Position numbers and translations under genes: made by a program. Below, piece by piece: positions 9,145 through 43,079 of a stretch of DNA of 64,000 bases; positions within the stretch are counted from its first letter, which is position 1, and every line of letters begins with the position of its first letter. The stretch spans positions 1 to 64,000 of the IMG/VR virus record IMGVR_UViG_3300033153_005694. One strand, given 5' to 3'. The stretch is from a virus. The notes beneath the pieces were generated by a model. The model did no database searches, was not told where the DNA came from, and saw only the letters and a list, made by a program, of their open reading frames with translations.

Positions 9145-10631
9145 TGAGAGGATTAAGATGCACTCTACCACTAGCACCATTTGCTTCAGGTGCCACAGAT
9201 GAACTACTGGATGATAGTGTTAATGGAGTTACTACACAAGCAGACCATAGTAAAGGTGATATAGTTGTAACTGGTAATGAGTTGGTTGATAATGGTACAT
9301 TTGATACAGATACTACAGGGTGGACATTGACAGATGGTACTCTTTCTCATAGTACAGATAAAGCTCTTGCTACATATACAACATCATCGCAAACCTTAAG
9401 ACAAGACTTAAATCTTATAACTAACCTCAGTTATGTTATTAGTTTTACAATCCATCCGAATTCTAGTGTTGGAGCAGCTAAAGTTAATATATTTGGTGGT
9501 GATTTTCAATACTTCAGTCCTGAAGTTGGTGTAGATACTAATGTAACGCTAGTTTGTGTTGCTGGTAGTGGAATAGAAGAAATTGCAATAACAACATATA
9601 TGACTTCTGGCTCATATACTATTGACAATATCTCAGTAACCCTAGTAGACACATCATACCAAGCAATAGCAGATACAACAGCTAATGACTTACTTACAAA
9701 TACAGATAAGTTTCAAGTTATAGATTATGTAACAAGACAAGATGTAATACTACTAACTAAGACAGGATATAAGACTGTTACAGGTATTCATACATTTGAT
9801 GATACAGTAAGTAATGATGATATTGCTAGTGCTTATGATTGGAGCAAGCTAGGTAATGGATTATATAATGATGGTACAGAAGAGGTTATAATTAGTGGTA
9901 TAGTAGCTAGGGATAATGCTGGTGCTTATCATCCAGTTTATAATGGATTTGGTACAGTAGCTTTTACAAATACATCACAAGAAACAAACCATTGGTACAT
10001 TACAGACTTTAACATATATAATGTATATGATACCTTTAATCCATCAAATACTAGAACTATTGGTGGAGAGCATGGAGGAGGTAGCTTGTTGTATCCTACT
10101 TATGGGAATAAAGCTTATGATGGTGGTTGGAAAGGAGTTAGACCAGATGGTAAATTCTATGATAAAATCTACTACGAATCTAACGGAGGATTAATATTCC
10201 TACCTACATATAGTAAAGAAGTAAGTAAAGTAGATTTACTTAATGACGAGATGAATAAGTTAGTTAGTGGTGATACTGATATGAGTTTGGAGATGGGGGT
10301 GGAGACTGTATATGCTACATCTGTAGATACTACAATACACTATGAAAATCCTGCTAATACTTTATTTAAAATAAATACAGCTCTTCCAACTAGTATATCT
10401 ACTTCAGAGCAAGATGGAATACTTCAATTCTCAAGGAATGGGTCTCCATATAAAATGAATTGTAGGTTTTATAGAAGTGCTGCCGATGGTACTCTTGTAG
10501 TATCATATATTGGTAGTGATATTTATACGGTAGACGATACTATAGAATGGTGGTCTATTACAATTAAATCTCCATCACTCCTAACACAAGGCAAAGCACT
10601 ATCTACAGATGTGATAGTTGGAAATGTGTAA
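9144..10631 (+). CDS. Tail fibre/RBP middle part with carbohydrate-binding-like module (probable split gene, part 2)
   Basis: NELVDNGTFDTDTTGW..IDNISV CBM-like segment; RDNAGAYHP..N.FGT and RPDGKFYD motifs. Confidence 0.65.
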   Translation: MRGLRCTLPLAPFASGATDELLDDSVNGVTTQADHSKGDIVVTGNELVDNGTFDTDTTGWTLTDGTLSHSTDKALATYTTSSQTLRQDLNLITNLSYVISFTIHPNSSVGAAKVNIFGGDFQYFSPEVGVDTNVTLVCVAGSGIEEIAITTYMTSGSYTIDNISVTLVDTSYQAIADTTANDLLTNTDKFQVIDYVTRQDVILLTKTGYKTVTGIHTFDDTVSNDDIASAYDWSKLGNGLYNDGTEEVIISGIVARDNAGAYHPVYNGFGTVAFTNTSQETNHWYITDFNIYNVYDTFNPSNTRTIGGEHGGGSLLYPTYGNKAYDGGWKGVRPDGKFYDKIYYESNGGLIFLPTYSKEVSKVDLLNDEMNKLVSGDTDMSLEMGVETVYATSVDTTIHYENPANTLFKINTALPTSISTSEQDGILQFSRNGSPYKMNCRFYRSAADGTLVVSYIGSDIYTVDDTIEWWSITIKSPSLLTQGKALSTDVIVGNV

Positions 10632-17997: not shown

Positions 17998-19962
17998 ATG
18001 AAAATTAATAAGAAAGAATTGCTGACGAGTTTACAGGCAGATCTAAAAGCTAGTGAAACACTACAGAAGGAATGGCTAGCTAAAAGAAATGAATGGATTA
18101 GTGAGACATATGGTAAGCCCTATGGTAATGAAGAAAAAAATAAAAGCTCGATTGTATCGAAAGATATAAAAAAGCAATTGGAATGGATGTTGCCTGGGAT
18201 TACTGACCCTTTTCTAAGCACACCAGATGTAATCAAATGTAATCCTGTTACCTGGGAAGATAGAGATGCAGCTAAACAAAGTGAGTTGTTGCTGAATTCA
18301 CAGTTCTGTAGAAAGTTTAACAGGTATAACTTTATCATGAAAGCAACTAGAGTGCTTGCTACTGAGGGTACTGTAGTGATACAGACTGGATGGGATTACG
18401 AAGATGAAGAAGTTGAAACTATGGCTGAAACTGTGTCAGTTGATGAACTAGGTAATCAGTATGTAGAGTTGGTTGAAACTACAGAAACTAAAGTGTTACG
18501 GAATCAACCTACAGCGAAAGTATGTCGAAATGAAGATATATTCATCGATCCAACGTGTCAGGATGATATGGATAAATGTCAGTTCGTTATTTATCGATAT
18601 GAGACTGACTTGAGTACGCTGAGAGCTGATGGTAGGTATAAGAATCTAGGTAAATTAGCGAAGTCAGAAGAAGGTGAAGATATAGACTATGATTCGGAAG
18701 ATGATACAGAGTTTAGATTTAAAGATGCACCTAGAAAGAAAATGGTAGTGTATGAATATTGGGGTAACTATGATGTGGATGATGATGGTGAAGTTGAAGC
18801 TATTATATGTGCATGGGTAGGAGATACAATAATTAGATTAGAGAGTAATCCGTACCCAGATGAAAAACCACCGTTTATCGTAGTACCGTTCAATGCAATA
18901 CCTTTCCAAATGTTTGGGGAAGCACTAGCTGAAAATATTGGGGATAACCAGAAAGTTAAAACTGCTATTACAAGAGGAATACTAGACAGTATGACAAGTA
19001 GTAATAATGGGCAAATAGGTGTGAGAAAAGGTTCGCTAGATCCGAGAAATAAAAAGCTAATGTTAGCGGGTAGAAACTTTGAGTATAACGGTACGCCTAA
19101 CGACTTTTGGCAAGGAAGCTATAACAATATACCAGGAAGTGCATTTGATCTGTTAGCAGTAATGAATAACGAGATTGAAAGTCAGACAGGTACAAAGAGT
19201 TTTAGTGGTGGAATTACAGGTAGCGCACTAGGTAGTACAGCAACTGGAGCTAGAGGTGCACTAGACGCAACTGCAACTAGACGACTAAACTTGGTTAGAA
19301 ATATAGCTGAGAATATGCTGAAACCGCTGTTTAGAAAGTGGATGTCGTATAATAATGAGTTTCTAGAGGATGAGGAAGTAATTCGATATACGAATGAAGA
19401 CTTTGTCGAGATAAGAAGAGATGACCTAGATGGAAGACTAGATATAGATATTAGTATCAGTACAGCAGAAGATAATGCAGCGAAGAGTTCAGAGTTGAGT
19501 TTCCTATTGCAGACACTAGGTAATAACCTTCCAATGGAAATGACTCAGCTGATAATGGGTGAAATAGCTAAATTAAGTAGAATGCCAGATTTAGAGAAAA
19601 GTATTAAAGAGTATCAGCCTAAGCCGGACCCTGCAGCAGAACAAGCTAAGCAGATTGAGATGGAAAGACTGATGTTAGAAAATGAGAAAATTAAAGCAGA
19701 GATTGCTGATAGATATGCAAGAGCTGGTGAGAATGAAATTGATAGACAGCTTAAACAAGCTAAAGTAAATAGTGAAATGGCAAAAGCTAGAAAGACTAAT
19801 AGCGATGCAGATAGAGTAGATTTAGACTTCGTTGATAGAGATAACGGATTTAGAGAACAGTATGAAGCTAGTGAGAAAGAGAAAGACAGAAAGCACCAGA
19901 TAATGATGGCAGAGTTCCAGCAAAGAGCTGGTGATACCAATATCGGATTAGTTAGACAATAA
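17998..19962 (+). CDS. Portal protein (N4 gp59-like)
   Basis: VSKDIKKQLEW, IFIDPTC..D, VYEYWG, IIRLESNPYPD..PPF motifs. Confidence 0.9.
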   Translation: MKINKKELLTSLQADLKASETLQKEWLAKRNEWISETYGKPYGNEEKNKSSIVSKDIKKQLEWMLPGITDPFLSTPDVIKCNPVTWEDRDAAKQSELLLNSQFCRKFNRYNFIMKATRVLATEGTVVIQTGWDYEDEEVETMAETVSVDELGNQYVELVETTETKVLRNQPTAKVCRNEDIFIDPTCQDDMDKCQFVIYRYETDLSTLRADGRYKNLGKLAKSEEGEDIDYDSEDDTEFRFKDAPRKKMVVYEYWGNYDVDDDGEVEAIICAWVGDTIIRLESNPYPDEKPPFIVVPFNAIPFQMFGEALAENIGDNQKVKTAITRGILDSMTSSNNGQIGVRKGSLDPRNKKLMLAGRNFEYNGTPNDFWQGSYNNIPGSAFDLLAVMNNEIESQTGTKSFSGGITGSALGSTATGARGALDATATRRLNLVRNIAENMLKPLFRKWMSYNNEFLEDEEVIRYTNEDFVEIRRDDLDGRLDIDISISTAEDNAAKSSELSFLLQTLGNNLPMEMTQLIMGEIAKLSRMPDLEKSIKEYQPKPDPAAEQAKQIEMERLMLENEKIKAEIADRYARAGENEIDRQLKQAKVNSEMAKARKTNSDADRVDLDFVDRDNGFREQYEASEKEKDRKHQIMMAEFQQRAGDTNIGLVRQ

Positions 19963-21147: not shown

Positions 21148-22353
21148 ATGGATGAACTAACTCAAAATGAAGAAGAGCTATACGATCTAGATGATGAAGC
21201 AATGGAGGCAGCGTTTAAGGAAGCGAAAGCAGAATTAGCCTCTCCAGATACTCAGATAGAAGAAGATAACCAAGAAGTAGAAGAAGTAGAAGAAGTTGTT
21301 GAAAAAGAGACTATCGAAGATAACGATGAAGAAGGAATAGAAGAAGATCTGGAACACCCCGACGAGGACTCCGATGATAACAGTGATGAAAATGAAGTGA
21401 AAAAAGAGCCTGATGAGGATTCAGAAGATGAAGAGGGTAAGCTTGACGGAGAGCCTGAAGCAACTGAAGAACAAACCGAAGAAGATAAAAAAGAAGCTAA
21501 AGATGAATTACAACCAATAGAGAAATTACAGTTTAAGGCCAATGGTCAAGATTTCGAGTTTACAGTAGATGAGATGAAAGAACAGTTTGGAAGAGTATTC
21601 GGACAAGCTATGAATTATACTCAGAAGATGCAACAAATGAAACCGGATAGGAAGAAATTAGATGCAATACAGCAAGCTGGATTGAGTGACGAAGATGTAA
21701 ACTTAGCAATTGAACTATTGAAGGGTGATAAAGATGCGATTACTTCACTGATAAAGAGAACAGGTATAGATACCCTCGATTTAGACGTAGAGAATAGCAA
21801 GGACTATCAACCGCAAGATTATGGTCGGAATGAGACTGAACTTGCACTGAAAGATATAGAGGATGAGATTAGTCGAGATCCTGAATATAAGATTACACAT
21901 AACGTGCTTACAAAGCAGTGGGATGATAAGTCATGGAATGAAATGGCTAGTGATCCAAGTTTGATTAAGTTGCTGCATGTGGATGTTAAAAGTGGGATGT
22001 ATGATAAGATTAACCCTATAGCACAGAAGTTGAAGGTATATGGGAATGGTAGTAAGTCAGACCTAGATTACTATAAAGAAGCTGCTGGGCAATATTTTGC
22101 AGAGCAAGATAAAGTACGGGCAGAAGAGGCTAAGGTAGAAGAGCTAAAGTTAACTAGAGAGCAGGAAGAACAAAAACTTGCTGGTGTTAAAGCTAAACAA
22201 GAACAGAGACAAACTACCAAAGCAGCTGCTGTAAAACGAAAGGCTGCAGCCCCAAGTAAGAGTAAGGCTGGAACAAAGAAAACTATAGATTATCTAGATG
22301 AATCAGATGAAGCATTTGAAGAATGGTATAGTAAACTGCAAGATTCATTGTAA
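21148..22353 (+). CDS. Scaffold-like protein (N4 gp57-like)
   Basis: Very acidic N-half, FKANG..NYTQKMQ motif; directly precedes the capsid gene. Confidence 0.75.
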   Translation: MDELTQNEEELYDLDDEAMEAAFKEAKAELASPDTQIEEDNQEVEEVEEVVEKETIEDNDEEGIEEDLEHPDEDSDDNSDENEVKKEPDEDSEDEEGKLDGEPEATEEQTEEDKKEAKDELQPIEKLQFKANGQDFEFTVDEMKEQFGRVFGQAMNYTQKMQQMKPDRKKLDAIQQAGLSDEDVNLAIELLKGDKDAITSLIKRTGIDTLDLDVENSKDYQPQDYGRNETELALKDIEDEISRDPEYKITHNVLTKQWDDKSWNEMASDPSLIKLLHVDVKSGMYDKINPIAQKLKVYGNGSKSDLDYYKEAAGQYFAEQDKVRAEEAKVEELKLTREQEEQKLAGVKAKQEQRQTTKAAAVKRKAAAPSKSKAGTKKTIDYLDESDEAFEEWYSKLQDSL

Positions 22354-22385: not shown

Positions 22386-23723
22386 ATGGCAACAAACGTA
22401 TATGGAAATGGTACTAATAGTACTGCTGGTGTGAATACAATTACGCATTATTACGACAGAGCAGGTATTAGAGCTGCAAATAGAGTAAATGTGTATGGAC
22501 AATGGGCAGATAAAAAATCTCAGCCTACAAAAATGGGTAAGACATTTAAGGTTTCAAAATTCTTACATATGTATGACAGAGCACAAAATGATGGTGACTT
22601 TGCAGGTAAAGGTTACTTAACAGCTAGATCAGCTGCAGATGTATCAGCTGCTCTAACAGGTGCTACATTATCAGAAGGTGCTGGTGCGGTTAACAAGAAA
22701 AGTATCTCTAAAGTAACTGTTGAAGCTACATTAGCTAGATATGGCGAAATGATTGACTATACAGATGAAGTAGAGTTGTTCTCAGAAGACTCAATGCAAG
22801 TTAAGTATAGAGAAGAACTAGGTGAATTGGCTAACTCTAGAGAAGAGGATTTAATTCAATTAGATATGTTAGGTACAGGTACAGTACTGTATTCAGGTAC
22901 AGCTACGTCTAAAATTGGTGTTGATACTAAGATCTCTTACGACCTAGTGAGAAAAGGTGTTAGAAAACTAGTTAGAAACAGAGCTAAGAAAAATACAAGT
23001 ATTGTTACAGGATCGACTAAAGTAGGTACTGCTCCAGTTGCTAAAGCATACTATGGTATTATCGGTGCTGACGTTAAATCTGATTTAGAGTCAATTACTA
23101 GAGGTACAGACGGTGCTAAAGAATTTACATACCAACCAGCTCATAAATATGCAGGTGCTGCAAGTTTAGCTGAAGGCGAAGTAGGTGCAATGCATGAAGT
23201 TAGATTTATCGAAGCTGAAGGTGCTGTTGTATATAGAGGTGAAGGTTCTGGTGTTATTAGCGATACTCAAGAAACTGCTGCTACAACTATAGTTAGTTCT
23301 GCTGTACAAAATACAGGCGCTGCTGCTACAACTACTTACACTACTGGGAATGATAATTCTGCTGAGAGATTTGCTGCAATTTTAGCAGCTAGAGGGTCTG
23401 TTGTGTACGTTGATGCTTCTGATAGTAATAATATCAAAGAAGCTACTGTAATTGGTGATACTGATATTGGTGGAACTGGTTCTGATGTACTTATTAATGA
23501 GTACTTTGATGCGTATCCTATTCTTTTCCCAACTGAAGGTTCATTTGCAACTGTTGGTCTAAAAGGTAAAGGTAAGATTAAATTTAACTCTAAAGCACCA
23601 GATGCTGTTGAATTATCTAACCCATATGGGACACAAGGTTTCTTCTCATATAACTTCTGGTACGCTGGATTGATTTTACAAGAAGAAAAACTATTAAAAA
23701 TCTTAGTTGCTGCTTCAGTATAA
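22386..23723 (+). CDS. Major capsid protein (N4 gp56 family)
   Basis: L.EGAG.VN, RYG..DYT, LVRNRA.K.T, KYA....GEVG, NPYG..GF.S motifs. Confidence 0.92.
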   Translation: MATNVYGNGTNSTAGVNTITHYYDRAGIRAANRVNVYGQWADKKSQPTKMGKTFKVSKFLHMYDRAQNDGDFAGKGYLTARSAADVSAALTGATLSEGAGAVNKKSISKVTVEATLARYGEMIDYTDEVELFSEDSMQVKYREELGELANSREEDLIQLDMLGTGTVLYSGTATSKIGVDTKISYDLVRKGVRKLVRNRAKKNTSIVTGSTKVGTAPVAKAYYGIIGADVKSDLESITRGTDGAKEFTYQPAHKYAGAASLAEGEVGAMHEVRFIEAEGAVVYRGEGSGVISDTQETAATTIVSSAVQNTGAAATTTYTTGNDNSAERFAAILAARGSVVYVDASDSNNIKEATVIGDTDIGGTGSDVLINEYFDAYPILFPTEGSFATVGLKGKGKIKFNSKAPDAVELSNPYGTQGFFSYNFWYAGLILQEEKLLKILVAASV

Positions 23724-30506: not shown

Positions 30507-30920
30507 ATGGAATGTGGTTTAAATAATCAAGGTCAATTTGTATGTGAAGGTTTAGGTGCGAGTGCATATGGAGCAACTATTAACAGTCCAATAGTGTCTG
30601 ATAATAGCTCAATAGTACCTAAAGGTGATATTGGGAATGTAGGTCCTACACAAGTTACGGCGGATATCATGAAAGATTATATTCCTGGTGTAAGTGGAGG
30701 TGGTTGGTTTACGCAGAATAAAGGTATGATAGACGCAGGATTAGGATTAGGGCAACTAGGACTAGGTTATCTAGGATATCAAAGCCAGAAGAAACAAATA
30801 GCAAGTAATATAGCGGATGCTGAACAGCGAAGAAGATTGAATGAAGAAGCTGCACAAAACAAAAGAAATATACAAGCTAAAGCACAGAGTGTCTTTGGCG
30901 GTACGCCGTATACTGCATAA
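30507..30920 (+). CDS. Small ejection-type virion protein
   Basis: GLGLGQLGLGYLG glycine zipper then coiled coil. Promoter at 30455-30476. Confidence 0.55.
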   Translation: MECGLNNQGQFVCEGLGASAYGATINSPIVSDNSSIVPKGDIGNVGPTQVTADIMKDYIPGVSGGGWFTQNKGMIDAGLGLGQLGLGYLGYQSQKKQIASNIADAEQRRRLNEEAAQNKRNIQAKAQSVFGGTPYTA

Positions 30921-30929
30921 AGGTAAAAT

Positions 30930-32546
30930 ATGACTAAATATGCAAAGTATGGTAATATTTCAGTAACAGACCCAACTAAGGGTATGCAAGCTGCAGTAGG
31001 CAGTATAATGGATAGAAGGCTAAAAGAAGATATACTAGCTAAAGAGGAAGCTCGACGAGCAGTGGAAGCTGAAAGAGCTGAAAGAGGCTTACAGCTAAGA
31101 GAAGCAGCAGCAGAACGAGAAGCAGGTAAATATAAAACTGCACTAGCTGAGAAAAAAGCTTTGCAGGAGTACGTAACAGGATATACGCCGTATGGCGAGG
31201 AAGCAGGTGGTCGAAAAGGTATGGAGCTAGTAGATAAGGCTGTGCTGGGTAAGATTGAAGAGATGGATAGACCATTGACTTACGAAGAAGCAGCAGATGT
31301 ACAAACGTTTTACGAGAAACAAGTACCCTGGAAAGAAGAAGCATTAAGTAGTGTTTCAAAGAATTTGTTAGCAAGAGGAGTTGATCCAAAGACAGCGTTA
31401 GTAACAGCGGCAACTTTGACAGAAGGATTAAAAAGTAAAGAAGAGGCAAGAAAAGAAGAAGTTGCAACTACGAAATTACTGAACGAGAGAGCAGATAAAG
31501 CAGCGAAAGTTGAAAGAGAAATTGCAAGGTTGATGAAGACTGCTGCAGGAAAAGGTAAAGCAGGAAGAAAAGGCAATGGAACAACGGCTCTGGATATATC
31601 AAGTTTGGTTGAAAAACAAGATCTTGGGTGGTATGATACAGATAAAGCACAAACTGCTGTAGATGAAGCGTTAGAAATCGCAGATGCTAAGTCAGTGAAG
31701 AAAGCAATTGGGTATGGAATTACACATGGGTACTTTGCGAAAGGCTTTGATCCAGTTAAGTTTCGAGCAGCAGTAAATATGTTTGAAGAAAAAGGGGTTG
31801 AAGGCACTACTGGGACACCAAGCCTAGGAACACTAGATAAATTTAGACCAAGAAGCTTTCAGCCTGAACCTATTAAAGATATGACAGCTGAAGAAAAACT
31901 AGCTGAGGCTAGAAAAGAAGTAAGGTGGCTAGGTGAAGAAGAAAAAGCAAAACCGGCTGCAAAAGTACCTGCAAAACTAGCTCCTCCAGCTAAAGAAGTA
32001 GACGAGAAAAAAACTGCAGAAGTTAAAGTAGGTGATGTATCAGATGCTAGTAAGGCATTTGAAAAGTATAAAGGACCTAGTTTGTTTGGTAAAGATACTC
32101 AAGCATTGACAATACCTGCAAAATGGGGTACTAGAAAAATGCCGGTACAGACAGAAACAGAAAGACTACAAGTTGAGAAAGCACTAGGTGATGCTCCTAT
32201 AGAAGATGTATCATTAGCGTTAGTGCCTGCTGGTGCCGGAGCAAAAGTTGCAGGAAAAGCAGTAACTAGTGCTACTGGTAAAGCGTTCGGTAAGATACTA
32301 GATAAACTTACAGGTACGTTACGTGGTGGCACTTTTACGACAAAAGCTGCTAGTGGTAGAGTACTAAGTGGTGGTAGTGCTAGCGCTGCTAAGAAAGCAT
32401 TTAATAAACAACTAACTGATGAGATTGCTGTAATGGCAAGTAAGGCTAGATTGGATGTTGGTGATGTTAGTAGACTAGAAGCTATTGCTAAACGAATACC
32501 TGCTCTTAAAAAAGATATAGATATGCTCATAAATACAATGAAGTAA
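30930..32546 (+). CDS. Ejection/internal virion protein
   Basis: Ala/Lys/Glu-rich, Cys-free, directly before the vRNAP gene. Confidence 0.55.
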   Translation: MTKYAKYGNISVTDPTKGMQAAVGSIMDRRLKEDILAKEEARRAVEAERAERGLQLREAAAEREAGKYKTALAEKKALQEYVTGYTPYGEEAGGRKGMELVDKAVLGKIEEMDRPLTYEEAADVQTFYEKQVPWKEEALSSVSKNLLARGVDPKTALVTAATLTEGLKSKEEARKEEVATTKLLNERADKAAKVEREIARLMKTAAGKGKAGRKGNGTTALDISSLVEKQDLGWYDTDKAQTAVDEALEIADAKSVKKAIGYGITHGYFAKGFDPVKFRAAVNMFEEKGVEGTTGTPSLGTLDKFRPRSFQPEPIKDMTAEEKLAEARKEVRWLGEEEKAKPAAKVPAKLAPPAKEVDEKKTAEVKVGDVSDASKAFEKYKGPSLFGKDTQALTIPAKWGTRKMPVQTETERLQVEKALGDAPIEDVSLALVPAGAGAKVAGKAVTSATGKAFGKILDKLTGTLRGGTFTTKAASGRVLSGGSASAAKKAFNKQLTDEIAVMASKARLDVGDVSRLEAIAKRIPALKKDIDMLINTMK

Positions 32547-32628: not shown

Positions 32629-35600
32629 ATGCCTATTGAAATTGAATACTCTTCACTACTAAAAGGTGAAGTACCCGCTACAAGCAAAATAGAATCACTA
32701 CAAAAACGTAAATACGATAAGCTAGAACGACTAGCACCTGAAGCTGCAAATATACAAACTGCAGAACAACTACAACAATCACTATCAGATATCGCAGATC
32801 AGCAAATATATACAAGACCAGATGGAAGTAAATACCAAATAGACTACATGATCGACCCTGTAACAGGATTAAGTCAAGGCCAACAAGAAGTAGACTACAC
32901 AAAAATAAGTAGATATGGTACACCAGATACTAGAAATCTGTACATCGATACTTCACCAGAAGGTGCTTACAAGCTAGGATTAGCTAGAAGTGATAAAGGC
33001 TTTATGGGTAGGTATACTCCAGGAGAAGACTACGGATGGGCACCAGGACCAAAAGGAGTAACTCCAGAAAATGGTGCATTGATGGATATAGAATTGCCAC
33101 ATGATGTAGCTACTCAGTTTGAATATGACGTACATACTAATGTAGGACAAATACGAAGTAGGGCTGCTGGACCAAGTATTGCGGAAATTACGGCTGCTAG
33201 ACCAGAATTTGGTAGTGGGGTAAGCGAATATACTAAACCAACAGCTCCAATGTGGAATATAGGATATGTAGCTCCAGAAGGACAACTTCCAGAAGATACA
33301 TATATGCCAAAGAAATTACGAGAAGTAGAAAAGAAGAAGACATTTAAAGACTACCTTACAGAAGAAGAAGCTAGGAGCGGAGAAAGAGCAGCAGGCGGAG
33401 AAGAATTGGTAAGTGGACTAACAAAGTCACTAGGTACTGCCTTTACAAAAGAACTAGCGGTAGATACAGCTGATTGGATAGGGGATGCTACAGGATTCTG
33501 GGACATAGGCTCAGAAGACGAAAAAACTAAAATGGTAAATGAGTGGTTTAACTACGATCCAAGGAATTTAGAAGAAGCACATAAAAAAGTAAGTGTGTTG
33601 AATAACAAGATATGGGATGAAGCTAAAAAAGGAAATATAGCTTGGAAAGAACTAGGCGAGGCTATAGTAACTGCTGTAAAAGAGCCAGAATTACTAGGAA
33701 GTTCACTAGGTACAATAGCAGCATGGGTAGTACCAGGAGCATGGTTGACTAAAGGTAAAAAGTTTGCCGATGCTGCAGGTATGGCAGGTAAAGCTAGCCA
33801 TGCATTAAAAGCACAAAGTGGACAAATAACAGCTGCGATAGGAAATGTAAATGACCAGTATGAAGAATTCGTAAAGAATAACAATGATGTAGAGTTACAA
33901 GGTATAGAAAAAGCGGAATGGTTTGCAACTAGATTTGGGGTACAGATGTTGAATCAGAACCTAGATGCGATTACAGCTACAAGTATAATAAAGTCACCAG
34001 CAATGTTTAACGCTGCAAAGCAGTCGATAGCAGGATTGACAGAGAAGCAATTTGGCAAGTTTTTAGCGGGTGTGGGAAAAGTAGTAGGTACCACTGTAGT
34101 GAATATGCCGAAAGAAGCAGTTCAAGAGTATACTCAAAGAATGATGGAATTGACAAATGAAAGATTTGGAGCAGAGAAGTTTAAAGACTTAGATACGTTC
34201 GGTAAGTTCTTGCTAGATGAAGGTGTAATGAAAGAGGGAACACTAGATGCATTGATGGGAGCTGCAGGAGCGGTACAGTTTCAGGCAATAGGTGCAGTAC
34301 CACAAGCGTTAAGAGGCGCAAAAGAAGTAGTAGCAGATGCGGTAGGCGGTGAAGTAGATCCAGATGTACAACGAATGCCTACAGGCGTAGCTGGTAGACG
34401 AAGAGTATTCAACTCAGATGAAGCGATGGATTATGTCGAGAATGAGAAGAGTAGAGATGTGTTTACAAAGTCTATAACAGACTACACAGTGGATCTGTAC
34501 TTCCTTCCAGAGGAACAAGCAAGTAGCCAGTATGCAGGAATAAAAGATGTAAAAGAAAGAAATAAGCGAATACTAGATGACACAGTAGAAAAGATAGCGA
34601 AAGTAAACGGACTAGAAACAAATGCTGAAAAAGAGTATATATACCAACAAGTTGCAGATAAGCTGAAAAAAGAGTTTGTCAAGGCTTCAGAAAAAGGTGA
34701 TGGAAAAGTAGAAGAGAAAGATGAGTTCTACAGTGGGCTACTGACAGCGAGTGATGATAACAAGTATGTGCGAAGAGAAGTAGACGATGCATATAGAGAA
34801 GAATTGCTTAGTAATATGGTTGAGTTTAAAAAAGAACTAGATAGAAGAGGCGTAGAAGTAAAGGATATAGAGCTAAATCCAGAAGAGCAGAAGAAAGTGT
34901 TGAAAGTACTAGATAGAATGAAAAGACTAGGTTCTGAGGAACTAGAAGACGAAGCTCGAATAATAGCGGAAGCACTAAAGCTAGCTGAAGCACAAGATAA
35001 GAAAACTGTAGCAGATGTAAGACGAGAGATTGAAGTAACTGGATTCTTGAAAGGCGGAAAGAACTACAAAGGTTTAAAAGACCATACGGTAGATATTGAA
35101 GGTGATATCGTAAGCGGTAAAGATAGTGTAGCAAATGTTGAAATGTTGCAAAAATTTGCAGAGTCAAGAGGGGCAAATGAAGTACAACTGTTTTACACAG
35201 ATGCTAAAGGTAATAGAGTACAGAGAAATCCGGTAACGATACACAGATTTATACAAGACCGACAAGAAGATACACAAAAAATAGCGGATACAGTAAATAA
35301 ATTGCTGGCTGTTGAAAATATATCACCGAAGATAAAAGAGCAATTAGAAACAGTACAGAAAACAGTAAATGATAATCTGCAAGAAGTTGAAAAGCTATCA
35401 AAGATAGACGATAAAGAACTAGTTGAAACGCTAATAGAGATGCCACAGAATATAGCAAGTAAAGGACTGGTAAAGATACCAAAAGCTAAGGTTAAAGCTG
35501 AAGAAGTAGTAGCTGAAGAGATGCCGGTAGATGAGTATGCAGATATAGATGTAACAGAGACGGTAATAGAATTACCAGTGGAAGAAATAGTAGTTGAGAA

Positions 35601-38600
35601 ACCTAAAGTTAAACCGGTAAAAGTAGCTAAAGAAAAAATTGAAGAAGTAAAAGTAGAGCCTAAAAAAGAAGTAAAGATTGAAGAGAAGAAAGTTGAGCCT
35701 AAAGTTAAGAGAGAACTAGATATTCCAACAGTTTACGAAGCGATAGTGAAAACTAAAAGTGCATATAAAGATGAAATAGAAGCACAGATAAGAGAACAAC
35801 TAGATGGTACAGATAAAAAGTTACCGGTATGGGAACTTTATAGAAGTGAAGGTATACCAGGATCTACACCAAAGAAGATAGAACAGCTGATAAATGAGAT
35901 TGTAGCAAGTGAACCGAGATATATAGAAGAAGTAGATGCATATATAGAGGGTAAAGAAGAGTATTACAAAGCTGCAAAAGATGATGGAACAGATACGATA
36001 AGAGCAAATATAAAAGCACTAGAGTACTACGAAACTAGATTAGATGGTGAAATACAAAAGAAAGTTACAAAAGTAAAACAAAAAGAACAACAAAAACTAA
36101 AAACAAAGGTTAAAGAAAAAGTAGCTGCAGGAGTCGACTCGTTGCGAGTAAGAATAATGGATAAACTGAATAAAGTGAAAGAACTGTTTAGACCAAATAC
36201 AGATAAGCAACGAAGTGTAGCAAGTCAGCTAGCAGCTGGGATAACAGAAGCTAGATTGATGGAGATGATGCCTGCAGTGATTCGAAAAGCAGGAGATAAA
36301 GGTAAAGATAAAGTACGACAAGCGGTGGTAACATTACAAAGATTTACAAAAGAAAAAAGTAGTACACCATTACCTAGTCAAACGCTAGCCGCGTTGAAGA
36401 ATAAAATAAAAGTAGAAAAAGGTGATAACTACATATTGGACGAATGGTTCAGCAAGCTTACAGAGAAGCAAGATAAAGAAGTAGAGAAATGGTTCAGAGT
36501 TGCTGTGAATGTGTCTGCAGTGATTGGAATGGGTAAGATGCTGGATGCTAGAAAGCTAAGTAGCAGTGAACTAGATGACTATGTGACAGGAGCATTCGGT
36601 GTATATGAAGGTACAGATGTACATAGTGAGTTGAAGAAGAAAGTGAAGAAAGGTGAGATAGTACCGATATCAACATATAGAAAAGAATTAGGTCAAAGAT
36701 TGCTTAAAGAACTAGAATTGAAGTTTGATATTGCAGAATTAACAGGGCAAGATAAACAAGATGTGACAATGGCAATAGGTCAACTAGTGATGGAAAGAAT
36801 GAAGCGAGTTGCAAAAGCTGAGAGTCGGTATGGAGTAGAAGGTAAACAAGTAGGAATAAGCACAGAAGCTGGAACAGTAGAAGTAGCAGATAGTATCGAT
36901 AACCCAAAAGGCGATAAGATCATCAGAACTGTGTTAGAGTTTAAACTGTCAAGTGAAGCAGAAAGAGAACTAGATGTAGCAGCGAGTGTGCTAGAGTATG
37001 CTGGAACACAAGATCACGGAAATATAAAAGATGTGCCTACAGAGTACAAGTATGATAAGAAGATACGGAACAGTGAGATAACTATGCCGCGAGAAGCTGT
37101 GAAGTACTTGAATAAACAGAATAAAAAATCATGGAAGTTCAACAAAGATTGGCAAGAGCTGTATAAAACTGTAGAGGAACGAGCAAAGAAAGAAGGCAGA
37201 ACAGTAAACGAGTTGATGTACGAGTTAATGCTAGATAATGAGCAAGAATTGATAGCGAATACACCAGCGATGGAAATAGAAAGTGTGATGGCTAAACTAG
37301 AAGCTGATAAGCTAGATGTAGACAGAATGTTGATGGCATACGACATAGCAGGTGAAGGTGAGTTCTACCTAGATTGGGATTTCACGATAAGCGGAAGATA
37401 TATGATAAGTAACAGAATGTTGAATCCACAGAATAGTAAGATAAGTAGGTTTATCGTAGATATGCAAGGCCAAAGAAGTGTGCTAGAGAAAATAGATGGG
37501 AAGTATGATGAAGATGCGCTGCATATGATAAAAGTAGCAGCAGCACAAGCATTGGGTATTGGAGTAGATAAAACGGTAGATGAAAAGGCAATTGAAGAAC
37601 TAGGTAAGAATTGGTTTGTGATAGCTAAAGATGGCAAAGTAACGTATGCAGATAACAGAAATGCAAGAATACTAAAGAAAGCTGCAGAACTGCAAGAAGT
37701 GAATGCGATAGCTGCAATGAAGTTGTTGAATCAAACAGGTGTGATGCATACAGATGAGAAGATGCACGTGTACCAGATGTTGAAGGCGTTAAGAGAACTA
37801 GATAAAGGCAGCGATAAGACAGAGCATAACCTAGCATTAGAGATGGATGGAATTACGAATGGTATGATGTTGACATTGCTAGATATGGGTTGGAATGAGT
37901 GGATTCAAAGTATGCTGGAAAAAGGTGGAATATATGACGTAGATAGCGAGTACGAGAACCATGGACAGTTTAAAGTTGCAGGTGGACAAGATATCTACGA
38001 AGTACCAGTGGACATGTTGAAGAAAAAACTAGAATTAGGTGATGAAGAAACTGCAGAGTTGATTGAGCAAGCTGGATGGAGGAACTTTTTGAAGCCACTA
38101 GTGATGGTATTCATGTACGGCGCTGGGATAAATAATATTCGAAGAAAAGCGGCTGAAGAGTTGGCGATGTTGCATGTGAAGAATGCAAAAGATGTAGGTA
38201 AGATTAAAGGATTGATGGCAGAAGCTGTAGGGTATATGAACTCGAGTAGAGAGACCACAAAGTATACGTCAGCTGCTAAAGTAGAATTTAAACAGTATAA
38301 AAACGGAGTGATGCGAAGTATACCAGACGGAAAAGTAAAAGATGTGTATTTAAGCCCATACCAGATGTATATATTGAGTACGTACTTAGATGAAGCTGTG
38401 ATAGGGAATTACATAGAAAATAGCTTTGAGACAGAGTTTAAACCAGTGGTAGAGTATAGACAAACGCTAAAAACAGTTGAGACAATGAACTACTGGGTGT
38501 TTAAACAGCAGTTAGAGAAGAAGTTGAAAGGTAAGAATGTTGCAGAGTTGACGGCTGAACAGTTAGAAGAAGTGTTGATGGAAATGATAGATGAAAATAC

Positions 38601-39369
38601 GTTCTATGGAGCAAATGACGCGAATAATGGAGTGCAAGATTACACAAAGATGGGAGATACACATGCGAATAACAAGGTACATGTAGCCGGGTTTGGAGGA
38701 TATGCAACGAATATTGACGTACGACGAAAAGAAGTGAATAGTGCGGTTAAGGATTTCATCAGCAATATTGGTGCAGTAGGTGTAACAGCTATACATAACA
38801 AAGATGGTAGAGCAATGAATGAAGGACATATCAAAGATGTGTTGAATATCTTCGATGCACTGATGATGGGTACAGATGTAGAAGTGAATGGGGAGCAATC
38901 TGTAGCGATGAATAAATCGATGGTAGATGTGAGTAGACAGCACGATATATTCGGAAAAGCTGTAGAAAAGTTAGTAGGAAATCTAGATAAAGTTAGCTTC
39001 GAAGAGATGAGTGAAGCTGATGTAGAGTCGCTACAAGATGACTTAAAAAGAGCATACGGGATTACAGGTGATGAAGATCTAGATAACATGACAGCGAAAG
39101 TGATGGAGATTATCGAGAAGGTAAGAGAAGATAGAAAGACACTAGGTAAAACTAGATTAAAAGTAAATCACTACTACGTGAGTGACAAAATGGGTCAGTA
39201 TAAAGAAGAGCAAGCTGGAGAAACTACGGGTATAGTAGAAGAACTAGGTGTACTAGAAGATAAGATGAATGAGATGTTTACAGCAGAAGTAAAAGTAGAT
39301 GAAGCTGCTGTTAAGCCGGAAGATGGTATAATAGCGAATATAGCAAATAATATCGAGGAATGTGTATGA
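32629..39369 (+). CDS. Virion-encapsidated RNA polymerase (N4-like), N-terminal and polymerase domains
   Basis: T7/N4-type motifs: SGRYM..NPQNSK, EMDGITNG (A), R..LKP..M..MYGAG (B), NIFDA (C). Confidence 0.88.
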   Translation: MPIEIEYSSLLKGEVPATSKIESLQKRKYDKLERLAPEAANIQTAEQLQQSLSDIADQQIYTRPDGSKYQIDYMIDPVTGLSQGQQEVDYTKISRYGTPDTRNLYIDTSPEGAYKLGLARSDKGFMGRYTPGEDYGWAPGPKGVTPENGALMDIELPHDVATQFEYDVHTNVGQIRSRAAGPSIAEITAARPEFGSGVSEYTKPTAPMWNIGYVAPEGQLPEDTYMPKKLREVEKKKTFKDYLTEEEARSGERAAGGEELVSGLTKSLGTAFTKELAVDTADWIGDATGFWDIGSEDEKTKMVNEWFNYDPRNLEEAHKKVSVLNNKIWDEAKKGNIAWKELGEAIVTAVKEPELLGSSLGTIAAWVVPGAWLTKGKKFADAAGMAGKASHALKAQSGQITAAIGNVNDQYEEFVKNNNDVELQGIEKAEWFATRFGVQMLNQNLDAITATSIIKSPAMFNAAKQSIAGLTEKQFGKFLAGVGKVVGTTVVNMPKEAVQEYTQRMMELTNERFGAEKFKDLDTFGKFLLDEGVMKEGTLDALMGAAGAVQFQAIGAVPQALRGAKEVVADAVGGEVDPDVQRMPTGVAGRRRVFNSDEAMDYVENEKSRDVFTKSITDYTVDLYFLPEEQASSQYAGIKDVKERNKRILDDTVEKIAKVNGLETNAEKEYIYQQVADKLKKEFVKASEKGDGKVEEKDEFYSGLLTASDDNKYVRREVDDAYREELLSNMVEFKKELDRRGVEVKDIELNPEEQKKVLKVLDRMKRLGSEELEDEARIIAEALKLAEAQDKKTVADVRREIEVTGFLKGGKNYKGLKDHTVDIEGDIVSGKDSVANVEMLQKFAESRGANEVQLFYTDAKGNRVQRNPVTIHRFIQDRQEDTQKIADTVNKLLAVENISPKIKEQLETVQKTVNDNLQEVEKLSKIDDKELVETLIEMPQNIASKGLVKIPKAKVKAEEVVAEEMPVDEYADIDVTETVIELPVEEIVVEKPKVKPVKVAKEKIEEVKVEPKKEVKIEEKKVEPKVKRELDIPTVYEAIVKTKSAYKDEIEAQIREQLDGTDKKLPVWELYRSEGIPGSTPKKIEQLINEIVASEPRYIEEVDAYIEGKEEYYKAAKDDGTDTIRANIKALEYYETRLDGEIQKKVTKVKQKEQQKLKTKVKEKVAAGVDSLRVRIMDKLNKVKELFRPNTDKQRSVASQLAAGITEARLMEMMPAVIRKAGDKGKDKVRQAVVTLQRFTKEKSSTPLPSQTLAALKNKIKVEKGDNYILDEWFSKLTEKQDKEVEKWFRVAVNVSAVIGMGKMLDARKLSSSELDDYVTGAFGVYEGTDVHSELKKKVKKGEIVPISTYRKELGQRLLKELELKFDIAELTGQDKQDVTMAIGQLVMERMKRVAKAESRYGVEGKQVGISTEAGTVEVADSIDNPKGDKIIRTVLEFKLSSEAERELDVAASVLEYAGTQDHGNIKDVPTEYKYDKKIRNSEITMPREAVKYLNKQNKKSWKFNKDWQELYKTVEERAKKEGRTVNELMYELMLDNEQELIANTPAMEIESVMAKLEADKLDVDRMLMAYDIAGEGEFYLDWDFTISGRYMISNRMLNPQNSKISRFIVDMQGQRSVLEKIDGKYDEDALHMIKVAAAQALGIGVDKTVDEKAIEELGKNWFVIAKDGKVTYADNRNARILKKAAELQEVNAIAAMKLLNQTGVMHTDEKMHVYQMLKALRELDKGSDKTEHNLALEMDGITNGMMLTLLDMGWNEWIQSMLEKGGIYDVDSEYENHGQFKVAGGQDIYEVPVDMLKKKLELGDEETAELIEQAGWRNFLKPLVMVFMYGAGINNIRRKAAEELAMLHVKNAKDVGKIKGLMAEAVGYMNSSRETTKYTSAAKVEFKQYKNGVMRSIPDGKVKDVYLSPYQMYILSTYLDEAVIGNYIENSFETEFKPVVEYRQTLKTVETMNYWVFKQQLEKKLKGKNVAELTAEQLEEVLMEMIDENTFYGANDANNGVQDYTKMGDTHANNKVHVAGFGGYATNIDVRRKEVNSAVKDFISNIGAVGVTAIHNKDGRAMNEGHIKDVLNIFDALMMGTDVEVNGEQSVAMNKSMVDVSRQHDIFGKAVEKLVGNLDKVSFEEMSEADVESLQDDLKRAYGITGDEDLDNMTAKVMEIIEKVREDRKTLGKTRLKVNHYYVSDKMGQYKEEQAGETTGIVEELGVLEDKMNEMFTAEVKVDEAAVKPEDGIIANIANNIEECV

Positions 39370-42300
39370 GTTGTAAATCAGAAAATATAGCAAAGAATGT
39401 AGATGAGTATGGAATCGGTGATGTCCACGAAGCTGCGAAGTATGTAAATGACAATAGACGCAGAAATGCGTCGATAGCAAGAGCAAGTAAAACGGGGAAG
39501 TATGCTGATCCAGAGAAAAGAGTAGACTTTAAGATTGATAAAGATAAAGGGCTAGTTGGAAAATGGTTAGGACGAGAAAGCGTAGATGGATACAGCTTTG
39601 AAGAAAGTGTGAAGATTGAAAATGTTGAAAGACTAGATGCTGAGCATGTACGGCTGAATGGCGAGATTACAATAAACCTAGATAAGAATATGACAAATGA
39701 TGGTATGTATATAACAGAGATATATGGTAGTGAAGCAGATGTAACAGAAGATGAGGATACGGTAAGTATACGAGACTTCACAGGAACACTTGAAGAAAAC
39801 CTAGATGAAGTGTTCAACGCAGTGACAGAAGAAGATGGCGAGATGTTAAGCGATGACCACCATGACCACCTGGTGGGTGTGCTGGAGATGTACCAAGATA
39901 AGATGAAAGAAACTGGTAAAGAAGTAAAACTAGATGGACAACTGCTAGAAGAAATAACACTTACCGGAAAGAATACGAGAGGACACGCAAATCCAGAAGA
40001 TGGTAAGTTTGCGATAATTAAGGGTAATAAGAAGTACGTAACAGCTACAGAAATACTAGCACATGAATTACAGCATGTATTGATAAGTAAGGCGATAGCT
40101 AAGAACCCAAAGATTAAAAGAGATATACGGCAGTTAAGAGAATTGATGAAGGAAAAACTAGATTACAAGATATTCCTAGACGGTATAGAAAATGTAACAC
40201 AAGAAGATATCGACTACGCTAAAGAGACATATAGGTATGCACTTGATAATACGAGGGCACCAGAAGATGAGTTCCTAGCATTTGCAACAACAAATGAGAA
40301 GATGATTAAAGCGCTTAAAGAACAGAAAGATATAAAAATAAACCTGTTTAAAGAGTTAAGTAAAAAGGAACTAGCAAAAGTAGGTAAGATGCGAAAGTTG
40401 CTAGAGCGGATAATCAAAGCGATAAATAAAGCATACTCATCGATAAAAGTAGAGGGTAAAGATACACATGAATTGGCTGTAGACTTGATGGCAAAAGCAT
40501 TAGAAGTGGCTGCAAATGAAGGTAAACAACAAGATAAAGGTGTATTTGGCAAGATAAATAACTTACTGGCTAAAGGCGATGCGCAAATAAGAAAGTTTAC
40601 GGATAGCATAGAGCAAGAAGAGATGACATTGGCTGACCATATTCGAAGAAGAGATAAAAAAGGACTAGATAAAGCCATTGACAGCATGTGGCGAATAAGA
40701 GGGTTGAATAAAGCTAGAAGTTTCGTATTACAACACAACATATTCAGTAGTTTGACACGGAATAGCAAGAATGAAGATGTAGGGAAGTTCTACGACATGT
40801 TTAGACAGAGTAAGAAGTTAGTAGATAGTACAGTAACGCATTTAAAGAGTGTGACATTCGATACGCTGTTGACTGAGTATAAACTAGATGAAATGGATGT
40901 TAGACTACGAAGAGCTACTAAAAGAATACTGATAGATGCAGATACAATGGCAATAGGAACGCTAGATGAGGTTGAGGAGTACTTGAAGGATAACAAGAAA
41001 CTAGATCAGGATATCATCGCAGAGAGTGTGGGATTGAAAGATGAGACAGTATTGGCAGCAAAAGAGCTAGGTGCGATGATAGTGGATAATAGCGCGTATA
41101 CGCACAATGGGTACACAAATGCAAAGCAAATAGCAAGGTTGCTAGAAGGTAAGGAAGATGAGCAAACAGTACAGAAGATAGATAAATTAGCCAGTATGAT
41201 GGCACTGTATGTGAGTTCGGATATTGATAAGGCACTAACAGTAAAGGCACTAGTTGAGAATAGGACTGGGATTGAGGCTGCTATAAATCTGCATTTGAAG
41301 CATGAAGAAAGGTTGCTAGAGAAAGCGTATGCTGGAATGAAAGAGTACGCTACAAAGGGTGCTAAGCAAGAACATTACAAGGGAAATAAAAAATACTACC
41401 TAGTGGATGAAAAAGAGATGAAAGATCTAGTGAAGGCTGGACTGCAGAATGTAGGAAAGCATAACGAGTTGAGTAGGATACTAGGTGAAGATAGATATAT
41501 AGTAATCGGTGATAGTATAGATACGACATATACAGAAGGTTTGATGAGTGTTGTACAGCTGAAGAATGAAGGCGAAAGTTTAAGACGGATATTGCTTGAA
41601 ACTGGAAAGTATACGAATGAAGAAATTGAAGAAGTGATTGATAGAGAAGCTGGAAGTAAAAGAGTAGGAGTGGGGACATTTCTGGTACCCGAAAGAAGTG
41701 GGACCGGTGAGATATACGACTATAGACTGCGAATGACACAAGAGCATAAAGAGAAGTATCTAGATCTAGATAATGATCTGGTTCACACAGTAAGCCATAC
41801 AGTGGCGAACCTGACACATAAAGAAGAAGCGATGGTGAGTAATAGAACATCGGTTAAGTATTTGAACAGCTTTTACGAGAAACATGGTAAGGATGACGAG
41901 TTTACGTTTATCGCAGTAAATAAAGATTCGACTGGTAGATTTAAAGAGTATTGGGATTTGATACCCGCGTATTTGAAGAGAGATATTGAAGGAAGTAGTA
42001 AAGATAAGACACTGTACATCGAAGAAAGTATGTTGGTAGACTACTTTGGATATAAAGATGTGAGTATGAAAGATATGCCGTGGGTAAAAGATAGTAGAAA
42101 ACGGCAAATGCTTGCAGTTAAGTTAGAAAGAACAGCGCAAGAACTAGTTCAGAGATGGAAAAAAGTTGTGGTAACAATGACTGGAACTACGATAAAAGGA
42201 AATATGGGCTCGAATATGTTAGTGACAATGCAGCATATAGGAATGGATCCCGTGTTTAAAAGTATGTGGGAAGAATTGAGTCAATATCAAGAAGATGTGA

Positions 42301-43079
42301 AGAAAAAGACACAATTAGAGGTAAGAAGAGATGCTGGTGAAAAGATACCAGAGTATAAGATAAAAAGTTTAGAAGCAAGCATAAAAGCTAGTGCTGTGTA
42401 TAGCTTGATGGAAGATGGACAATATACAGCATTGCTGGAAGATATCGATACAAGCCTGTTCGATGAGAAAGGACCACTAGCTGAAAAGATTGATAAATTG
42501 CTTGACAAGATTAAGAAAGAGGATAAGAGAGCTGGAGTAAAAGAAGTGATGGAAGAGCTGTATTTGACGAATGATTCGAGAGCTCAACAGCAGTTGATAA
42601 AATTGACACTATACCCGGATATGTTGAATAGAGTGATGATTTACAATGACGCGATGGAGAAGTTAGAGAACAGTAAAAAGGAAGTAATAGAAAAGTTTGG
42701 GGGAGATAAGACGAAGTGGGAGAAGCATAAAGCAAAAGTAACGAGAGAAACGATGCGATATGTAGATGGGCTATTTGTCAATTACGCATACTTAGATAAT
42801 AAGTATATAAAGTATGCGAATGATATGGGATTTGTAGCGTTTACAAAATTCTTCTTCAGAACTATACCTGCGATGCTTAAGATGGCAGCTAAGAAACCAT
42901 TAACGATGTTCATGACAGAAAGTATGCAGAAAGTTATAGGAGTGGATCCTGAGACACCTATGGATCAAATGTATAATCCGATAGATACAATGCTAAGGAA
43001 GTTGATGATATGGGATGAACCCGTGAATATGATGGATACGTTGCTGATGCCAGCAATTACAAGACCGCTAGAAGTTTAG
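39366..43079 (+). CDS. Large virion protein, probable separated C-terminal part of vRNAP, with zincin-like HExxH
   Basis: ATGA overlap with vRNAP; EILAHELQH..DEFLAF; FVNY..G...FTKFFFR C-terminal motifs. Confidence 0.7.
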   Translation: MSCKSENIAKNVDEYGIGDVHEAAKYVNDNRRRNASIARASKTGKYADPEKRVDFKIDKDKGLVGKWLGRESVDGYSFEESVKIENVERLDAEHVRLNGEITINLDKNMTNDGMYITEIYGSEADVTEDEDTVSIRDFTGTLEENLDEVFNAVTEEDGEMLSDDHHDHLVGVLEMYQDKMKETGKEVKLDGQLLEEITLTGKNTRGHANPEDGKFAIIKGNKKYVTATEILAHELQHVLISKAIAKNPKIKRDIRQLRELMKEKLDYKIFLDGIENVTQEDIDYAKETYRYALDNTRAPEDEFLAFATTNEKMIKALKEQKDIKINLFKELSKKELAKVGKMRKLLERIIKAINKAYSSIKVEGKDTHELAVDLMAKALEVAANEGKQQDKGVFGKINNLLAKGDAQIRKFTDSIEQEEMTLADHIRRRDKKGLDKAIDSMWRIRGLNKARSFVLQHNIFSSLTRNSKNEDVGKFYDMFRQSKKLVDSTVTHLKSVTFDTLLTEYKLDEMDVRLRRATKRILIDADTMAIGTLDEVEEYLKDNKKLDQDIIAESVGLKDETVLAAKELGAMIVDNSAYTHNGYTNAKQIARLLEGKEDEQTVQKIDKLASMMALYVSSDIDKALTVKALVENRTGIEAAINLHLKHEERLLEKAYAGMKEYATKGAKQEHYKGNKKYYLVDEKEMKDLVKAGLQNVGKHNELSRILGEDRYIVIGDSIDTTYTEGLMSVVQLKNEGESLRRILLETGKYTNEEIEEVIDREAGSKRVGVGTFLVPERSGTGEIYDYRLRMTQEHKEKYLDLDNDLVHTVSHTVANLTHKEEAMVSNRTSVKYLNSFYEKHGKDDEFTFIAVNKDSTGRFKEYWDLIPAYLKRDIEGSSKDKTLYIEESMLVDYFGYKDVSMKDMPWVKDSRKRQMLAVKLERTAQELVQRWKKVVVTMTGTTIKGNMGSNMLVTMQHIGMDPVFKSMWEELSQYQEDVKKKTQLEVRRDAGEKIPEYKIKSLEASIKASAVYSLMEDGQYTALLEDIDTSLFDEKGPLAEKIDKLLDKIKKEDKRAGVKEVMEELYLTNDSRAQQQLIKLTLYPDMLNRVMIYNDAMEKLENSKKEVIEKFGGDKTKWEKHKAKVTRETMRYVDGLFVNYAYLDNKYIKYANDMGFVAFTKFFFRTIPAMLKMAAKKPLTMFMTESMQKVIGVDPETPMDQMYNPIDTMLRKLMIWDEPVNMMDTLLMPAITRPLEV

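Follow-up and report, generated by a model that had tools for sequence, protein, structure and literature searches.

Facing cysteines at the junctions of a split virion RNA polymerase in an uncultured N4-like podophage and its relatives

Two coupled genes for a virion RNA polymerase

The window analysed here is a stretch of 64,000 nucleotides (nt) of viral DNA, positions 1 to 64,000 of the IMG/VR record IMGVR_UViG_3300033153_005694. It is taken from a viral contig of 83 kb and belongs to an uncultured N4-like podophage in which the virion RNA polymerase (vRNAP) is encoded by two translationally coupled genes, the open reading frames (ORFs) ORF1 and ORF2. ORF1 ends with ..NNIEECV* and ORF2 begins with MSCK.., so that each protein carries a cysteine beside the junction. 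The two proteins together comprise 3483 amino acids (aa). The features of the locus are given below by window position; RNAP stands for RNA polymerase and CTD for C-terminal domain.

32629..39369, plus strand: ORF1, the A piece of the split vRNAP, 2246 aa, comprising the N-terminal region and the RNAP domain; sole cysteine at residue 2245
36964..39213, plus strand: predicted T7/N4-type single-subunit RNA polymerase domain, ORF1 residues ~1446-2195 (AF2 model and VIA-align)
39289..39366, plus strand: C-terminal tail of ORF1, residues 2221-2246, with Cys2245; positional counterpart of the N4 RNAP-CTD linker (pLDDT <50, model residues 822-847)
39355..39359, plus strand: Shine-Dalgarno-like GAGGA, 6 nt before the ORF2 ATG at 39366 (direct sequence reading)
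39361..39363, plus strand: Cys2245 codon TGT, penultimate residue of ORF1 (script count)
39366..39369, plus strand: ATGA shared by the ORF1 stop and the ORF2 start (translational coupling); frame of ORF2 +2 with respect to ORF1
39366..43079, plus strand: ORF2 or C piece (1237 aa), homologous to the N4 gp50 CTD; sole cysteine at residue 3
39366..39443, plus strand: N-terminal tail of ORF2, residues 1-26, with Cys3 (pLDDT <50 in the AF2 model)
39372..39374, plus strand: Cys3 codon TGT, the only cysteine of ORF2 (script count), kept in 8/8 ORF2 homologues
39780..40550, plus strand: zincin-like subdomain formed by residues 139-395 of ORF2; HELQH at residues 233-237 (window 40062-40076)

An earlier note on this DNA had described one cysteine per half, penultimate in the 2246-aa ORF1 and at residue 3 in ORF2, a coupled downstream start at 39366 and a total of about 3480 aa. 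The script count, the ATGA overlap and the total of 3483 aa agree with this description. The note had also held that the N4 vRNAP is a protein of about 3500 aa lacking cysteine; gp50 was counted at 3500 aa with 0 cysteines. Cysteine content of the other ORFs of the window was 0-6%. Both junction cysteines sit in terminal stretches of 26 residues, one closing ORF1 and one opening ORF2, that were modelled at pLDDT <50.

An ATG at 39360, in frame with ORF2 and two codons earlier, would yield MCMSC.. with two cysteines, and this longer form is the one in the ORF list. Because this ATG abuts GAGGA with zero spacer, and because ORF2 homologues begin MSC, MGC or MAC, 39366 is the likely start of ORF2. 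An equivalent upstream ATG (giving MLMSC) is present in three of the related loci introduced below (L004, L006 and L009).

By its predicted structure ORF1 carries a T7/N4-type RNA polymerase fold. The AF2 model of residues 1400-2246 had a mean pLDDT of 73.4 and a pTM of 0.75. In VIA-align, residues 47-796 of this model matched the RNAP domain of N4 gp50 (9pnq, 1176-2068) with Z 19.0 and a root-mean-square deviation (rmsd) of 4.5 over 658 aligned residues; T7 and mitochondrial RNAPs came next (Z 11-17). At the sequence level, ORF1 residues 1457-2201 matched the central part of many annotated N4-like vRNAP genes (tblastn), and a profile of the A pieces matched N4 gp50 1413-1863 (hmmsearch). Sequence searches of the PDB with single ORF1, with single ORF2 and with a profile of the RNAP part (A3) returned nothing, the polymerase being seen there by fold comparison only. 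Whole ORF1 had no Pfam or PHROG family match, and its N-terminal 1400 residues had no detectable match to N4.

ORF2 is a homologue of the gp50 CTD. Its residues 145-1200 matched PHROG 2206 'virion RNA polymerase' (positions 2266-3371 of 3406, E 5e-81), and positions 250-1164 of a profile of ORF2 homologues (A1) matched residues 2475-3446 of the N4 gp50 PDB chains (E 2e-30). BLASTP aligned ORF2 393-1179 with gp50 2651-3443, the identity of the CTD to that of N4 being only ~21%; Pfam gave nothing useful for ORF2 either. In the AF2 model of the first 440 residues (mean pLDDT 65.7), residues 139-395 superimposed on N4 gp50 2375-2593 (9pnt; Z 11.3, rmsd 4.0, 184 aligned in VIA-align), and this zincin-like subdomain also matched metalloprotease chains (Z 6.1-6.6). 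H233, E234 and H237 of HELQH are at least 90% conserved in an alignment of 43 CTD pieces; in one close ORF2 homologue E replaces the first H of HExxH. A putative zinc-binding motif in gp71-C is mentioned in the DEV paper (PMC11445570).

The window polymerase is thus similar to N4 gp50 and other Schitoviridae vRNAPs (Pseudomonas phage DEV gp71, LUZ7) in its T7-like RNAP and homologous CTD. It also shares with gp50 the giant total size (3483 aa here versus 3500 aa) and the near-total lack of cysteine; two smaller ORFs precede it, candidates by position for the gp52 and gp51 that precede gp50 in N4. Unlike gp50, it consists of two proteins, split at the RNAP-CTD linker, with one cysteine at each facing end. 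In N4 gp50 an invisible linker, 2102-2123, joins the RNAP to the CTD (PMC13434306). Model residue 798 of ORF1 aligns with N4 2070, which places the end of ORF1, 49 residues further on, near N4 2119 and within that linker. The break in the gene thus coincides with a flexible linker of the one-piece enzyme.

Cysteines at the junctions of related split polymerases

Related loci, 6 viral and 10 metagenomic, were collected. L005 was dropped as nearly a duplicate of L003, and L011 as identical to L006; L013 and L015-L017 hold no junction and stand outside the junction count. The junction set comprised 10 distinct sources including the window, with 27 pieces, 17 junctions and 40,009 residues. In seven of these phages the polymerase is in three pieces, with a middle piece (213-1023 aa) between A and C; in the other three it is in two. 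All cysteines of the set (34/34) are located at junction-facing ends, on both sides of the 17 junctions. On the upstream side, the protein ends with the cysteine itself at 14 of the 17 junctions, and at the remaining three the cysteine is followed by 1, 2 or 4 residues; on the downstream side the cysteine is always residue 3 or 4. Each middle piece carries a cysteine at either end, and the first N-termini and last C-termini of the 10 loci have zero. An eighteenth junction, in L008, reads ..KEGCAK* followed by MSCDT.

The junctions vary in their nucleotide context. The downstream ORF is in frame 0 in 4, +1 in 2 and +2 in 11 of them, with gaps of -11 to +17 nt; the upstream cysteine codons are TGC in 10 and TGT in 7, the downstream ones TGT in 12 and TGC in 5. 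With frames, gaps and codons so varied, conservation is at the protein level; a frameshift introduced in assembly, a recoding signal common to the junctions and a cause at the nucleotide level are ruled out. Shine-Dalgarno-ATG starts at the related junctions are good. In L003 the three pieces share one frame, with a single TAA and then directly ATG at both junctions (7156-7161 and 9790-9795; same in L005).

Among 5.8 billion proteins searched were ORF2 homologues of 1220-1567 aa (38-46% identity), 8/8 of which stand alone and have exactly one cysteine, at residue 3-5. That the gene is split had been claimed in the earlier note, which had also set the conservation of terminal cysteine pairs in relatives as a check. 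The split was borne out by these separate homologues and by nine related loci with the polymerase in two or three ORFs in differing frames; the pair was recovered at 17/17 junctions, in addition to L008. A crude control was made with 128 other ORFs of these 10 sources; in them cysteine made up 1.23% of residues and occurred within the first 7 residues in 7/128 and within the last 5 in 8/128.

Two loci show what becomes of the pair when a junction changes. The A pieces of L009 and L004 are 68.5% identical, and L009 has one junction fewer. Missing from L009 are ~48 residues at the end of A and ~618 at the start of the middle piece, and together with them both cysteines of that junction; its other junction retains the pair. 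In L014 (29% identity to ORF2) a middle part of the L003/L010 type is fused to A, giving a protein of 3205 aa whose only cysteine is the last residue. The window itself has no middle piece, and alignments of ORF1 with the A pieces found in relatives stop 6-60 residues short of the ORF1 C-terminus. Single-protein searches for related loci gave no close relative; a further search gave L022, which is unsplit and free of cysteine.

The C-terminal pieces were surveyed on a larger scale. A HMMER scan with ORF2 residues 1-1200 against 1.84 billion representatives gave 972 matches at E ≤0.001. The census comprised 154 proteins, 150 listed of the 972 matches and 4 from the homologue search, with 281,828 residues. 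These CTD-bearing proteins hold 97 cysteines, of which 87 lie within the first 7 residues. Two size classes were tabulated.

1000-3000 aa (n = 109): N-terminal cysteine only, 83; N-terminal and another, 2; internal only, 6; none, 18
At least 3000 aa (n = 26): N-terminal cysteine only, 1; N-terminal and another, 0; internal only, 0; none, 25

Among the examined proteins of 1000-3000 aa, 85/109 hence have an N-terminal cysteine and 24/109 are without it. The rule holds down to 29% identity (L014) and in matches of 23-26% identity. Residue 2 is mostly G, A or S, M-G-C and M-A-C being the commonest N-termini. Methionine aminopeptidase removes the initiator methionine when residue 2 is small, and because of the residues found at this position the initiator is probably removed here. 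Seven of the 154 proteins comprise both RNAP and CTD (2377-2525 aa) and begin M-x(1-5)-C, which marks a second break site, on the upstream side of the polymerase. The alignment of CTD pieces in which HELQH conservation was read (alignment A4) has an invariant cysteine column by construction, its members having been picked for an N-terminal cysteine, and is not counted as evidence. One CTD-bearing protein of the census that begins MGC (P0096, 2882 aa) resembles phage Dda and exonuclease V type helicases in residues 391-863 (tblastn, E 1e-9 to 1e-10).

Upstream genes, middle pieces and other proteins

Directly 5' of ORF1 lie two ORFs that are candidate ejection protein genes by gene position only.

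30507..32546, plus strand: two ORFs, of 137 aa and 538 aa

They hold the positions of N4 gp52 (150 aa) and gp51 (644 aa) before gp50 and had no PHROG match. The 538-aa ORF has 0 cysteines. The 137-aa ORF (30507-30920) begins MEC and has cysteines at residues 3 and 13. N4 gp51 and gp52 have 0 cysteines, as do the ORFs in the gp51/gp52 position upstream of the A piece in L002, L006, L007, L009 and L011. Elsewhere in the window, the major head protein (445 aa) and a PHROG 'tape measure'-type protein (401 aa) each have 0 cysteines and the portal (654 aa) has 6; these three genes lie within 17998-19962, 21148-22353 and 22386-23723.

Two middle pieces of relatives resemble enzymes to some degree. 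That of L010 (5822-8890) matched DUF7831 (92.9 bits) and an AlkB-like 2OG-Fe(II) oxygenase (32.8 bits, cut-off 31.2). That of L003 (7159-9789) has a NADAR-like stretch (26.2 bits, under the cut-off of 35.1). Enzyme-like middle pieces with a cysteine at both ends may be injected cargo.

A disulfide between the facing termini and its alternatives

The scarcity of cysteine in gp50, gp71 and the ejection operon is in print and has been explained as avoiding disulfides during entry (PMC3715699, PMC11445570). N4 gp50 is arranged like beads on a string and passes, N-terminal domain first, through a channel of ~35 Å; its CTD inhibits the polymerase (PMC13434306). Encapsidation of gp50 requires its CTD, and injection requires its N-terminal domain (quoted in PMC3821669). 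Two phages outside the locus set bear on how a split enzyme could keep both functions.

The first is the cultured Alteromonas phage vB_AmaP_AD45-P1 (AltAD45-P1). Its vRNAP is split into ORF127 and ORF126, the stop between them was verified by PCR, and virion polypeptides of 270 and 175 kDa were seen on gel (PMC3821669). The authors took the cysteines of ORF127 as a sign that it is not injected; the terminal pair is not described in the available part of that paper. The sequence record shows ..ASKHCKQ* at the end of the upstream piece and MTIC at the start of the downstream one, with no other cysteine from starts of the annotated length. AltAD45-P1 thus resembles the window phage in having a split vRNAP with a facing cysteine pair, and differs from it in being a distant phage of ~104 kb with another genome order. 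In its GenBank record (KF005317; L020:10624-22306) the vRNAP pieces have no coding-sequence feature, only a misc_feature 'potential frameshift'.

The second is cyanopodophage A4 (Anabaena phage A-4L), in whose virion pre-ejectosome a disulfide between gp27 Cys1715 and gp26 Cys5 was seen by cryo-electron microscopy; there gp26 holds the docked C-terminal helix of gp27 (PMC12002296). In the A-4L record gp27 has 1717 aa and its sole cysteine at 1715, gp26 has 1114 aa and its sole cysteine at 5, and the genes are adjacent. As in the window, the upstream protein has its sole cysteine near the C-terminus and the next gene's product has its sole cysteine near the N-terminus. A4 differs from the window phage as a 41.7-kb member of another family, and the disulfide of its ejection proteins has been seen, whereas the window pair is known from the genes. 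The accessible text of the A4 paper treats the bond as a local stabiliser, states no general rule for split ejection proteins and does not contain the term 'RNA polymerase' (PMC12002296). Virion disulfides have also been documented in crAss001 (PMC10172136).

We consider it likely that a head-to-tail disulfide between the facing terminal cysteines restores one ejectable chain in the window phage. The suggestion that the halves are re-linked by a terminal disulfide was made in the earlier note; the facing pairs it relied on proved to be conserved and have a precedent in A4, and for the window phage the bond itself is argued by analogy. Fission of the gene would place the injection determinant and the packaging determinant on different pieces, each of which would then depend on the other. 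Like all ejection proteins of this family, both pieces are purged of cysteine, apart from the one in each facing tail. The two flexible tails would dock non-covalently, and their thiols would form one inter-chain disulfide after the particle has reached an oxidising milieu. A single unbranched and almost linear thread would result, with stubs of 1 and 2 residues, and the N-terminal injection piece and the C-terminal packaging piece could be packed, and pulled through the narrow tail channel, together, like the enzyme made in one piece. With no other cysteine present, no wrong cross-links would form. In the reducing cytoplasm the bond may be reduced and the polymerase freed from the CTD, which is the least supported step. 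Formation of the bond after release into an oxidising milieu and its reduction in the cytoplasm are plausible.

Several observations weigh against a disulfide. Such a bond has been directly seen in no N4-like phage, the window phage included. Assembly takes place in a reducing cytoplasm, so that the bond would have to form late and a non-covalent docking, itself hypothetical, would have to come first. With several polymerase copies per capsid and four cysteines in three-piece systems, wrong pairs are possible. In the census there are 10 internal cysteines among the 154 examined proteins, and of the 18 cysteine-free proteins of 1000-3000 aa 6 carry RNAP and CTD, 6 look N-terminally shorter than ORF2 and 6 are unexplained; the six with RNAP and CTD may be short unsplit forms. 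The cysteines at 3 and 13 in the window's 137-aa ORF mean that the purging of cysteine from the operon is not absolute and that another partner is conceivable. Finally, profiles of the A and C pieces showed no sequence similarity to A-4L gp26-gp29 (hmmsearch, best E 0.057). A4 is therefore a precedent for the mechanism and not a relative, and the window pair is not filed as a member with gp27 and gp26.

Each terminal cysteine might instead serve its own piece, as a link to the portal, the tail or a gp51/gp52-like protein, as a site for a lipid, or as a redox sensor. Such a role would suit the predominance of M-G-C and M-A-C N-termini and the MEC start and second cysteine of the window's 137-aa upstream ORF. 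However, it leaves unexplained why the first N-terminus and the last C-terminus are always free of cysteine while middle pieces have one at both ends, and why both junction cysteines are absent jointly in L009. The ORFs in the gp51/gp52 position of relatives are cysteine-free, and no signal peptide or lipobox precedes Cys3. We regard this explanation as unlikely.

The terminal cysteines could also act together in a way other than a disulfide, by bridging a metal, maybe with acidic or histidine side chains, or through another covalent link. The pairwise pattern demands only that the two ends meet, a histidine stands beside the C-terminal cysteine in AltAD45-P1, and the C piece has a zincin-like HExxH domain. 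Two thiols alone, however, are a poor metal site, no conserved extra ligand was found beside the cysteines at the 17 junctions, and the only solved example of such a pair, in A4, is a disulfide. The chance that this alternative applies seems slim.

It is very improbable that the two genes really make one polypeptide, through an assembly frameshift, programmed frameshifting or readthrough, with the cysteine codons being part of a nucleotide-level signal. The other frame of ORF2, the ATGA overlap, the one-frame pieces of L003 and L005 with single TAA codons between them and the 'potential frameshift' label of AltAD45-P1 could be read in this way. Against this, 9/9 related loci are split, with frames 0, +1 and +2, gaps of -11 to +17 nt and mixed TGT and TGC codons, and 8/8 homologues come from independent assemblies in which each was called as a protein of its own. 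By eye, no X XXY YYZ slippery word was found in the last 24 bases before the ORF1 stop. In AltAD45-P1 the PCR-confirmed stop goes together with the 270- and 175-kDa polypeptides (PMC3821669). That fission termini under relaxed selection merely happened to gain cysteines is hardly credible, for although termini are usually poorly conserved, 34/34 cysteines in 40,009 residues face a junction, the rule is kept at 29% (L014) and 23-26% identity and in AltAD45-P1, and only ~5-6% of control ORFs have a terminal cysteine; chance origin of the facing cysteines is excluded.

Four readings were tried and rejected. Split inteins and protein trans-splicing likewise involve two gene products with cysteines at the ends to be joined, but there is no room for intein halves where the upstream cysteine is 0-4 residues from the C-terminal end and the downstream one at residue 3-4. 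A fusion by programmed frameshift or readthrough was set aside on the frame relation of the junctions, which is not fixed, and a nucleotide-level signal on the mixed codons and spacing. A bacterial lipoprotein was discarded on the position of the cysteine at residue 3 (MSCK), which no signal peptide can precede.

Three elements have been published before: the absence of cysteine, a single case of a split vRNAP and a single disulfide linking adjacent ejection proteins. A literature search, covering papers as far as their text was accessible, found none that gives a rule of junction-facing cysteines for split vRNAPs. A much wider proposal, which we advance tentatively and consider doubtful, is that terminal cysteine pairs are a general coupling grammar of podophage ejection proteins, 'wagons' clasped by disulfides into one injectable train. 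Genes could then be split at several linkers, with variable cargo between polymerase and CTD, and the reducing cytoplasm would uncouple the train, free the polymerase from its autoinhibitory CTD and release cargo enzymes at the first moment of infection.

Phage biology has yet to explain how a 380-kDa enzyme passes through a channel of ~35 Å (PMC13434306). The existence of split forms suggests that an unbroken, unbranched thread is what matters, and that one terminal disulfide can replace a peptide linker. The rule would explain the purging of cysteine in this family and would recast annotations such as 'frameshift' and 'not injected' as mechanism. It points to a redox-controlled step as infection starts, and the cysteine signature could be used to find further chain-injected proteins, enzyme cargo included.

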